Shown here one piece after another: positions 3,001 to 6,000 of a stretch of 64,000 nt of DNA; position 1 is the first letter of the stretch, and every line of letters starts with the position of its first letter. This DNA is from Escherichia coli (GTDB taxonomy: Bacteria > Pseudomonadota > Gammaproteobacteria > Enterobacterales > Enterobacteriaceae). The position numbers were made by a program. The DNA is taken from NCBI RefSeq assembly GCF_041886205.1, contig NZ_CP169029.1. The stretch is one strand, 5' to 3'.

Positions 3001-6000
3001 TCACGTGATAATGTTTCCTGCCTTTTTCCTTGCCAAACTCCCGACACCAGAAATAATGCAGGGTGGTTGCACGCACACGCTTGTTGGCACATCTTTTTTT
3101 CCGCTGGTAAGCCTGAATTTTGGCTTTCAGGGATGCAAAAAAACGAGAAATCACCGCTGAATCCGGATCGGGATCCATGATGGTGACAGGCATATACTCA
3201 GGGAAACGTAAATCCACCCGGATTAACGAGACGGCACGGTGCTGCGCCAGAGCACTGTCGAGAAGGCTGTCAAAACGGGATAACCAGTAAGCATTGTGTA
3301 TTGGTTGATTCATGATGAGAGATCTCCGTTGATTTGGATTGACTTCACATCATTAATCACCGCAGTAAAACTTTACGGCATCCTGTCATTAAGCAATGCT
3401 ACAACTCTCTGATTAAGAGAGATTGAAACGGAATAAACCATCCCGTAACGAAAAGAGAATCCTGCACGTAAGGTAAAAACACGCAGCAACAGCATGAATG
3501 GATTTGAAAACAATATGGATGACGAAAAAAGTCAAAAGGGAAACGGATCAACAGAACGTGCAAACAAAACATCAAAAACGCAATCAGAACGCTTTCTGGC
3601 GCTGTGAATCAACAACAACACCAAAACCTACAGCTTAACCACACAACTCAATCACAGAGCCGAATAGCGCGCTTAAAACCTGTTTACAGATAACCCCACC
3701 CCAAGAACAAAAACCACTAACATCAGAATCGATTTTCTTATCCAGAAAATGTTACGTTTCACTACACACCATAAAAACGATTAACCATCGATAACGTAAA
3801 CCTTATCTGAATCAAAACACCAAAACCGTTCATCACACTTTCGCAATGCAAGAAGAAACCTCATGACAAAAAGAATGACCTTACACGGAAAAGAAAAACG
3901 TCAGGAATCGTTAATGCCTCAATCTGATTGTTATCAAAAAATTCAGAAAGTCGTTTAACAGAATCGTCGTAAGCACATCGAAAAGAACGTCAGATTACTT
4001 CAGGAAAGCTCGGGTTGATTTAGCGTAAAGATACTTTTCTCATGCTAACGTCGAAACTCGAAATCTCAGGAAAGGTTAAACGTAACATCAGTAAAATCGA
4101 ATAGCAGATTGATTGCTGAAGCAGAAAGGTTTTACAGCAGCATTAAACTGATTTAGTTAACGTAAAGATTTACTAAACTGGATGTGTATATAGTATCATA
4201 CCGACATTCTCAACATCTTCAGACTTCCATACATACTGGGTGTTAATTTTTCACTTTTACAGCCAGCATGGAGTTTTCTGTCCTAAAAACAGAGCAGATT
4301 TACTCTGGAATTATTTTCTCTACCTCAGAAAACTTGCTCTCAATAATCTGCTATGGCTTCGTAGTTTCTGTTGTTCTTTTCATAAAAGTTATAAGTCATT
4401 GTCATAATCATACGATAATCACTTTATGTTAGTTTTTACTGTCATACGCTACTGACTTTTCAGTCATTGCCAGAAAGGGGGGCTTTTTACTTCCATTTCA
4501 CCACTCAACAAATGCAAAACTTGTCCAGTAAAGCGGACCACCTCTTGCTCACAAGCAACGAATCGTCTCCAGGAACAGCCCTCAAATATTGCAGAAACAA
4601 AAACAACAAAACCCTCATTATCACTGATGTTCGGAAATTTCCCTGAACAAAAAAAACGAAAACAAAATGAGACGCATTATCATTAATGTAGTCAAAAAGA
4701 CGTTATTGTGGCTTTCAGTTAAATGGTACTATTTCTCATAAATCCACTTAACTTTTTTTACTGATTCATCCCAGAGAACCACTTTATCAGTAAAAAATGA
4801 ATTATATAGATTGACGAGTTTTTCTGTTTCAGTTATTCCCAATGTATTATGTATAAGTTGTAGATATGCTTTTATCCAGATTTCTTTACCCTCCTTCCAC
4901 TTATCTATAAAACTTTCCAGCTTACTTAATCGTTGATTTATAAAAAACGAATCAATATCATGAAAAAGCTCAACAAGAAAACAGCACGAGACAATCTCAA
5001 CAAAAAACAAATTCTCCTTAAAAGCATTATAAAACTTTATCAACACATAACGAAAAACACCTCCTGTTAACCTTTCCTGTTCATAAAACAACAAGCCAAA
5101 AATAGGCGGAAATCTTTTAACCACACCACTTTTAATCCAGTAAGGATGATGATTAGTCTTTACTGGCAGTGAATAAAAGAACAATTCGGTTTCTCTTTTC
5201 CCACCACAAACAGACAAAACAGTCTTATAAAGACTTTTTGAATCACTATATCCTGACACTCCAGACGAATTAGCAGGGTATTTTCTTTTTACTTTTTGCC
5301 TTAATGGAGCTGGAAGGATAATAAAACGGGATGGTAGATAACAATCGCTTTCAGAAGACCTGCATTCGCACACATGAAGATTTATATTTACATCCGGACA
5401 ATTCAAAAACCACACAGAATAATTATCGCCCCGTTTGCAATATGAAACCCATGAATAAATTGCATAAAGTTCAGAAAGTACATCTAACTCTGCTTTTGAT
5501 TTAAATGTGATACCGTTTCTTCGAATTCTCGTTTCCAGCGTTCTCCATGCCGGAGTTTTCAGTATCTCACGAACTTTTTTATTAAGTTCAGCCAGCGATG
5601 GTCCCTGCTCCTGTTTATGTTTCTTCCTGCTGTTAATGATTTCTCTTTCTTTTACTAATTTTTTCTTACTTTTGGGTCCTTTTATCTTTCTTGGCAATGC
5701 TTCATTTAATCTGTGAACAGGATTTTGCTCTCTTCTTTTTTTGAGCTCACAAAACCTCTCATAATGTTTTCTGCACAGTCTTTTCTCCACTGCCATTTTT
5801 ACTGAGAAAACCTGATTGTTACAATTTTTTCTGACACATTTGTTTTTACGTCCGGTCATCCTCTCATCTCCTGAAACCGCAGTATGTCATTAGTTCCCGT
5901 TCGGAAAAACTCACTTCATACTCCATTACACTTTAACGATCATGTCCGTAATTCAGACATTCCATCATTTTTCACGTCCATATTACATGAATGATAAACC

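Follow-up and report, generated by a model that had tools for sequence, protein, structure and literature searches.

What occupies the AT-rich slot next to the YfjP-like GTPase gene of a CP4-like genomic island, and what might its product do for the island or its host? The question is raised by a stretch of 64,000 nucleotides of Escherichia coli DNA (assembly GCF_041886205.1, contig NZ_CP169029.1; called the window below), in which an open reading frame (ORF) for a basic protein of 376 residues lies between an Inovirus Gp2/YfjJ-like gene and the GTPase gene. Few 'cryptic prophage' elements are commoner in E. coli, Salmonella and Klebsiella than CP4-like islands, yet the role of their cargo and the factors that induce the islands are poorly understood. 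It is known already that accessory genes vary at fixed hotspots of mobile elements. Here, we describe the ORF, which we call type A, as an accessory cassette of one gene, whose fixed site directly adjoins the promoter of the GTPase operon on its upstream side. Its product belongs to a very fast-diverging protein superfamily of Enterobacterales, with at least three 'allelic' types in E. coli. What was an anonymous hypothetical protein is now a defined, exchangeable cassette of 1.6 kb, one of at least three deeply divergent versions found at the same place.

An exchangeable cassette beside the GTPase gene

A query extending from the 5' part of the ORF across the intergenic region and the GTPase gene was run against 5426 complete E. 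coli genomes. It matched 1872 of them, in full length 459 only; in the remaining genomes homology starts abruptly at position 5968, 76 bp upstream of the GTPase ATG. The GTPase gene itself is found in 1872–1873 of the 5426 genomes. By pairwise comparison, the left boundary is placed at around 4324: homology to islands carrying the alternative genes, types B and C, stops at 4317–4324 and resumes at 5968–5969. The GTPases of the type B and C islands compared are 92–96% identical to that of the window.

Both alternative genes occupy the same position in the same orientation, and both products are annotated as 'hypothetical protein'. Type B (WP_001107219.1, 407 residues), present in E. coli 042, was found in 976 genomes in all, and type C (WP_001389197.1, 328 residues) in 743, of which 378 in full length. 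The types are less than 20% identical to each other. Type B can be aligned with the family profile from end to end (hhalign probability 99.5%, E 3e-22, 359 columns), while type C aligns over residues 94–267 (probability 89%, E 2.4e-6) and has the motifs AW..T[EQ]....R, [IL]P..[IL][RK]..V, SLY and P.F.L...E in common with the family. Junction-spanning matches beside the GTPase gene number 459 for type A, 971 for type B and 735 for type C (1873 genomes, about 2510 GTPase copies), with members of the one superfamily in at least about 86% of the slots beside this GTPase subtype; about 35% of the complete E. coli genomes carry one or more of the three types. The initial annotation was right to place a low-GC cargo gene in the variable slot of a CP4-like island, between the Gp2/YfjJ-like and GTPase genes; its implication of random cargo does not hold, as the slot beside this GTPase subtype nearly always contains a divergent member of the same superfamily.

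The type A ORF, which runs from an ATG start to a stop codon exactly as described before, is a real gene under purifying selection. The ratio of non-synonymous to synonymous rates (dN/dS) with respect to the 80%-identical E. coli allele L007 is 0.29, with values of 0.2–0.5 in each of five segments (66 synonymous versus 88 non-synonymous differences, at a site ratio of 1:3.9); for the neighbouring GTPase gene it is 0.19. Together with full-length homologues that align end to end, this disposes of the reservation that the ORF might be a pseudogene fragment of a larger gene. The reading frame is intact in the E. coli cluster of 3400 sequences, and a 97%-identical E. coli copy bears the RefSeq label 'hypothetical protein' (WP_000147749.1). 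Many other database entries are fragments, mostly on very short contigs.

As noted earlier, the gene is of low GC content and divergent from the GTPase gene: 34% against 53% GC, on opposite strands, 184 bp apart. Positions 3500–6000 form a block of 34–38% GC within surroundings of 50–58%. The bias is persistent, as all type A, A-like and B-like members measured have 33–36% GC versus 53–60% for the GTPase genes, with type C at 45%. In every locus with enough flanking sequence the family gene is divergent from the GTPase gene, at a distance of 93–184 bp, and on its other side are a YagK/YfjJ-Gp2 gene and alpA (E. coli, Klebsiella, two Salmonella lineages and a plasmid-like record). The cassette gene diverges about twice as fast as the GTPase gene (80% versus 92.5%, 41% versus 67% and 30–34% versus 52% identity), and its identity tracks that of the GTPase across loci. 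In the Salmonella loci L009 and L013 the GTPases are 89% identical, yet the A-like and B-like genes align only over the N-terminal finger described below. Adjacency to the GTPase gene is not absolute, because on a metagenomic contig (L015, 940–3112) member P0024 is divergent from a WYL-like (YfjR-like) gene, with no GTPase gene between them.

The close family is small; two very large protein searches gave 18 and 20 matches, and a profile search 71. Homologues of 376–414 residues from E. coli, Salmonella, Klebsiella, Citrobacter and Atlantibacter align end to end at 25–37% identity, and Salmonella variants of 465–468 residues also occur. A search with profile A2 and a scan of genome contigs yielded no members outside the close family, and a tblastn search of 50,697 phage records yielded no relatives. 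Plasmid records gave one match, a 62-kb circular record carrying the entire island. In this record (L020, CP057032.1, 29163–48290), labelled 'non-mobilizable plasmid', the island with the type A gene also carries astA and genes for an integrase, a restriction endonuclease and an H-NS family protein; the record may represent an excised or circularised island, or else be an assembly artefact.

The initial annotation could not assign a family, and neither could we. For the type A protein, NCBIfam and PADLOC gave zero matches at E up to 1, Pfam-A (i-E up to 10) a single chance match to a PX domain (i-E 5.5), PHROGs only chance-level and inconsistent matches (E 0.03 or worse), and a PDB sequence search returned nothing; fold searches likewise found no relative of known function. 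Searches of the literature brought up no publication that deals with this gene or with the slot itself. To judge from these tools and the literature searched, the superfamily, its Cys-Cys-Cys-His (CCCH) module, its predicted fold and its behaviour as an allelic cassette beside a YfjP-like GTPase gene have not been described.

A conserved CCCH module, a basic arm and a predicted helical core

The type A protein begins with KCVRKNCNNQVFSVKMAVEKRLCRKHYERFC, in which cysteines are present at positions 8, 13, 29 and 37 and a histidine at position 32. The two halves of this cluster, KCVRKNCNNQ and CRKHYERFC, are separated by a spacer of 12 residues rather than the 17 given previously. Residues Lys7, Cys8, Val9, Arg10, Cys13, Lys26, Arg27, Leu28, Cys29, His32, Tyr33, Arg35, Phe36 and Cys37 are invariant or nearly so; as they remain so among homologues with only 25–37% overall identity, the cluster is far beyond chance. 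Within the type A lineages Cys8, Cys29, His32 and Tyr33 are invariant, as is Cys13 except for a serine in one Klebsiella cluster representative. Type B retains the pattern C-x4-C...C-x2-H-Y and has lost Cys37. In Salmonella proteins P0033 and P0069 the module is tandemly duplicated, the second copy having no equivalent of Cys37 and retaining the histidine. These proteins (L013, 8001–9398) are 465–468 residues long, and their core is nearer to E. coli type B, with which they share the motif SREWLNTQ.

Given the loss of Cys37 in type B and in the second Salmonella modules, while the histidine is kept, the conserved ligand set is better read as Cys8-Cys13-Cys29-His32 (CCCH, with spacing x4/x15/x2) than as Cys4. 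Of the 'Cys4 zinc-ribbon-like cluster' proposed initially, the conserved cysteine cluster is real; 'Cys4 zinc ribbon' is approximate only, with predicted CCCH ligands and without the two CxxC (or CPxC) knuckles of a classical Cys4 ribbon, neither half of the module being CxxC. No zinc-finger or zinc-ribbon profile matched in Pfam-A (i-E up to 10) or NCBIfam (E up to 1), a PDB profile search with the N-terminal alignment gave no match and a profile search with the module returned only fragments of the same family. The module resembles zinc-ribbon and treble-clef fingers in that its ligand spacing is strictly conserved and in that a short beta-hairpin knuckle bears two of the putative ligands and the beginning of a helix the other two, an arrangement modelled with a predicted local distance difference test score (pLDDT) of about 90. 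It differs from them in its Cx4C plus Cx2H pattern in place of two CxxC motifs, and no Pfam finger model matches it. The conserved residues predict a zinc-binding finger of the CCCH kind.

An AlphaFold model calculated from a 10-sequence alignment of the family was poor (pLDDT 62.6). A model from the 16-sequence alignment A5, to which types B and C had been added, reached a pLDDT of 79.4 and a predicted template modelling score of 0.69, with the five models ranging from 75.8 to 79.4. In both models residues 11–40 have a pLDDT of 88–91 and form a short hairpin, followed by a helix beginning at Cys29. In the A5 model this finger is followed by an arm, basic and in part disordered, and then by a core that is mostly helical and includes two small beta-hairpins. 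The arm corresponds to the Lys/Arg-rich segment noted initially after the cysteine cluster: residues 38–100 contain 33% lysine plus arginine, with low pLDDT at residues 58–73 and helices at 67–85 and 89–100. The isoelectric point (pI) of the whole protein is 9.7.

The large domain left unassigned in the initial annotation, from about residue 95 to residue 376, indeed matches no family, and no solved or annotated structural relative of the predicted core was found. The only structural neighbours, identified by Foldseek in the AlphaFold database, are uncharacterised Enterobacterales proteins of 300–480 residues (E 1e-14 to 1e-3, 14–28% identity), such as A0AAP9QUN8 from Klebsiella aerogenes, A0A602YYK9 from Salmonella, A0AAJ2D8J7 from Serratia and A0AA87CUL8 from Providencia. 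They are probably members of the same superfamily. Some of them are labelled 'HNH endonuclease' or 'Reverse transcriptase', labels that no domain match backs. Across the superfamily only Trp105, Tyr135, Leu152, Pro183 and Glu288 are invariant.

Possible roles of the cassette protein

The reading we favour, with a probability of roughly 0.4, is that the protein serves in conflict, as an anti-phage defence or exclusion factor. We infer such a defence or toxin role, already suspected in the initial annotation, from genomic context. In CP4-57 of E. coli K-12, the genes abpB, abpA, yfjM and rnlAB lie between yfjJ and yfjP. Among 22 IMG/VR loci gathered with the GTPase profile (GTPases 34–95% identical), the divergent upstream gene encodes an OLD-type ATPase-Toprim protein (PADLOC 2.6e-226), a type I HsdR (1e-145), a weakly LmuA-like protein or unrelated AT-rich unknowns, and the one locus with a 95% identical GTPase carries type C. 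In sister E. coli islands, genes for TIR, restriction-endonuclease and H-NS-family proteins are found elsewhere in the same cargo region. The expectation that the slot carries defence or toxin genes elsewhere is therefore borne out by AbpAB and RnlAB in K-12 and by the OLD-type ATPase-Toprim and HsdR genes of the IMG/VR islands, and in related elements the site of the type A gene is a defence hotspot. YfjM of K-12 was considered as a remnant of the family and rejected, being unrelated on comparison, and the small AT-rich slot ORFs of the distant islands L027, L033, L034 and L046 are not detectably related to the family.

The likeness to the AbpAB and RnlAB cargo of CP4-57 and to the hotspots of P4-like satellites extends to the position between the two arms, the low GC content, the sharp recombination boundaries and a content that differs between otherwise near-identical islands. 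In contrast to such cargo, the cassette protein has no PADLOC homologue, and the alternatives at its site are distant homologues of one another, not unrelated systems. If the favoured reading is correct, the protein would act in the conflict of the island or its host with invading phages or other mobile elements. The CCCH finger and the Lys/Arg-rich arm would bind nucleic acid, for which the CCCH module and a pI of 9.5–9.8 in all three types can be counted, while the rapidly diverging helical core would recognise a variable ligand derived from the invader. As the family has no conserved catalytic motif, we propose binding or occlusion, and not catalysis, as the output. A defence or exclusion factor of this kind would add a widespread new family to those known.

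Several observations weigh against a role in defence. Type C has neither finger nor basic arm, so finger-based nucleic-acid binding is not essential to the whole family. Types B and C have no Pfam, NCBIfam, PADLOC or PHROG match, and PADLOC-DB v2 at E up to 1 gave zero families for type A, types B and C and four other members. The superfamily alignment contains no conserved catalytic signature, and no enzymatic or membrane effector is recognisable. With one superfamily filling nearly every slot, the locus looks more like a quasi-core polymorphic locus than like a typical defence hotspot in which unrelated systems alternate, and divergent transcription from the main operon is the classic position of a regulator. 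For types A and B, searches of phages and of IMG/VR contigs turned up no relatives, a result that neither supports nor excludes defence. A toxin-antitoxin system would have a cognate second gene or RNA in the cassette; in type A, no small ORF is conserved (window, L001, L047 and L007) and the 400-bp 3' part gives no structure signal (z = -0.4).

The main rival reading, which we take seriously while doubting it, is that the protein is a regulator of the island, of the Stl or immunity-repressor type. The finger would bind an operator in the divergent promoter region and control the operon of GTPase, antirestriction, RadC and CbtA genes, and the variable C-terminal domain would sense inducers from helper phages or plasmids. 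This would fit the divergent orientation at 93–184 bp from the main operon in every lineage examined, the occurrence of the gene next to almost all E. coli copies of this GTPase subtype and the absence of a catalytic motif. It would also fit the distribution of conservation, the N-terminal module being 49–66% identical and the sole part of A-like and B-like proteins that can be aligned by BLAST, while the C-terminal part is strongly divergent. In the finger-less type C cassette of E. coli ES1, a second gene (L021, 5196–5987, plus strand) is convergent with the type C gene, with a 4-bp overlap; its 263-residue product has a ribbon-helix-helix-like C-terminus, with a weak RepA/CopB-like match in NCBIfam (E 0.057), and may supply DNA binding in trans. 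A type-A-specific imperfect palindrome in the 5' region of the cassette, ATGTCCG-TAATT-CAGACAT at positions 5942–5960, is perfect (8 bp) in the 80% allele L007 and forms a candidate autoregulatory site.

Stl master repressors of the Staphylococcus aureus pathogenicity islands (SaPIs) and phage immunity repressors provide a functional analogy only, with a gene divergent from the main operon, a putative DNA-binding N-terminus that is conserved, a divergent helical C-terminal part and alternative types in otherwise similar elements. Unlike these repressors, the cassette protein has no structural similarity to them and no helix-turn-helix, its putative DNA-binding module being the CCCH finger; structure comparisons detected neither a helix-turn-helix nor a known repressor fold. 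A master repressor would also be expected in all elements, whereas K-12 CP4-57 and the majority of distant GTPase islands lack the family. These related islands work without it, their slot holding bona fide defence genes, and the persistent GC content of 33–36% is typical of cargo.

The sequence shared by type A, B and C islands upstream of the GTPase gene also bears on regulation. Within its 76 bp, an invariant box (5978–5995) is followed by the palindrome or hairpin AACCGGAT-N7-ATCCGGTT at 5997–6019. A box with the pattern ..ATAT.A..N6-7..TGA.. precedes every YfjP-like GTPase gene examined, including K-12 yfjP and those of IMG/VR islands at 35% protein identity. The layout, also seen in L024 (11625–11713) and L026–L046, is that of the box, a hairpin with lineage-specific arms, usually a T-run, a ribosome-binding site and the ATG; in K-12 yfjP the hairpin is AACGGCAGAACC-N4-GGTTCTGCCGTT, followed by a T-run. 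No Rfam family matches the leader hairpin, and RNAalifold gave no consensus for the GTPase leaders, the hairpins being misaligned. Most simply, the shared 76 bp would be the promoter and leader of the GTPase operon, possibly with an attenuator. The same layout is present upstream of distant GTPase genes in islands without the family (K-12 yfjP, L038 and L041). The palindrome at 5997–6019, considered as the operator of the cassette protein, was dropped for this reason; its presence in family-free islands means that it is not a specific operator, which weakens the regulator model without removing it. Should the protein prove to be a regulator, it could account for the sensing of helpers by these islands. 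Under either reading, defence or regulation, the three natural types are ready-made specificity swaps for experiments.

We put forward with strong doubts a combination of the two, in which the superfamily would be a sensor-switch that is polymorphic and has a new fold. By its finger and basic arm the protein would be tethered to nucleic acid at or near the promoter and leader of the GTPase operon, and the hypervariable core would detect different phage or plasmid proteins; swapping of the cassette would decide which invader triggers the arm encoding antirestriction, RadC and CbtA proteins or is blocked directly. If true, its immune logic would either resemble that of Stl or be wholly new and based on a single protein.

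It is improbable that the protein is the partner of the adjoining GTPase, in a two-gene system to which it would contribute a variable subunit acting as sensor or adaptor. The strict adjacency of the two genes in E. coli, Salmonella, Klebsiella, Citrobacter and Atlantibacter and their correlated divergence could be explained in this way, but they are transcribed divergently and form no operon. GTPases that are 89–96% identical pair with types less than 20% identical, which argues against co-evolving contact surfaces; moreover, the L015 member adjoins a WYL-like gene without a GTPase, and distant GTPases do without the family.

A nuclease of the HNH kind is very improbable: Cys/His-Tyr motifs of a similar kind stand ahead of HNH domains in proteins of phages and actinobacteria, and the distant Foldseek matches A0AAU7IMG3 and A0A7W3D2Y5 are labelled 'HNH endonuclease', but no HNH model of Pfam or NCBIfam matches any member at E up to 10, the alignment contains no conserved His-Asn-His or beta-beta-alpha-metal motif and a tblastn search with the finger against the 50,697 phage records was empty. 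The gene can hardly be a functionless AT-rich remnant either, neutral or decaying and silenced by H-NS; although it is AT-rich, has about 1.4 kb of flanking sequence devoid of intact ORFs and is represented by many fragments in databases, most of these are on very short contigs, dN/dS is 0.29, the frame is intact in the 3400-member cluster and motifs and length are conserved at 25–37% identity over five genera.

Junctions and neighbouring sequences

The features of the locus are collected in Table 1. The left junction, of 143 bp, is 98% identical to that of the type C island L021 of E. coli ES1, and this element may be an insulator or a recombination joint for cassette exchange. No convincing iterons or tandem repeats were found. 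Two imperfect 36-nt direct repeats (4595–4630 and 4654–4689; 75% identity, 59 nt apart) lie 40–135 nt past the stop codon of the type A gene; two-copy families of this kind often arise by chance.

Table 1. Features of the type A cassette and its surroundings (positions in the window)
Feature	Position	Strand	Basis
Inovirus Gp2 / YagK-YfjJ family gene, left bound of cargo region	2582..3313	-	ORF and annotation
AT-rich backbone, no intact ORF of 60 residues or more	3314..4181	.	84% identical to L021
Conserved left cassette junction with bidirectional terminator-like hairpin 4290-4307	4182..4324	.	98% to L021, 82% to L022; nearby backbone about 84%
Exchangeable type-specific cassette: 108-bp 5' region, ORF, about 400 bp 3'	4325..5967	.	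Homology breaks versus type B/C islands
Type A cassette gene, 376-residue basic protein (stop codon included)	4729..5859	-	ORF listing, dN/dS 0.29, full-length homologues
Mainly helical core, two small beta-hairpins, codons 101-376, with W105/Y135/L152/P183/E288	4732..5559	-	No known fold
Lys/Arg-rich segment, codons 38-100, part helical, part disordered	5560..5748	-	Composition; low pLDDT 58-73; helices 67-85, 89-100
C-x4-C-x15-C-x2-H(-x4-C) metal-binding module (predicted), codons 8-37	5749..5838	-	Invariant columns; modelled beta-hairpin knuckle then helix
Conserved right junction, putative promoter/leader of GTPase operon	5968..6043	+	Common to type A, B and C islands
YfjP/YeeP-like GTPase, first gene of conserved right arm	6044..6928	+	RefSeq 'GTPase family protein'; Pfam MMR_HSR1 on homologues

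The island is CP4-like, its right arm continuing past the GTPase gene with DUF932, antirestriction, RadC, DUF987, YeeU/CbtA, DUF5983, DUF957 and DUF4942 genes. No integrase gene is visible in the part of the island within the window. No complete E. coli genome has the arrangement of positions 1–16000; with this 16-kb region as query, the best match in most records is 90–95% identical, and the island (about 650–13304) has a best match of about 92%. A non-coli Escherichia or a divergent lineage is therefore the probable origin of the window.

In the sister islands L019, L022 and L047, the region equivalent to the AT-rich backbone (3314–4181) carries an 82-residue ORF (WP_000573211.1) and a 176-residue ORF with a weak helix-turn-helix-like match (WP_000778604/5); these two genes appear to have decayed in the window. 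An Rfam PhotoRC-I match at 2823–2890 on the minus strand, inside the Gp2-like gene, is below threshold (24.3 bits versus a gathering value of 45, E 0.012) and almost certainly due to chance. Further to the left (1359–3313), the Gp2-like gene is the second of two tandem YagK/YfjJ-Gp2-like ORFs on the minus strand, the other spanning 1661–2251, and the latter is overlapped by an AlpA/excisionase-like ORF at 1359–1712, also on the minus strand.

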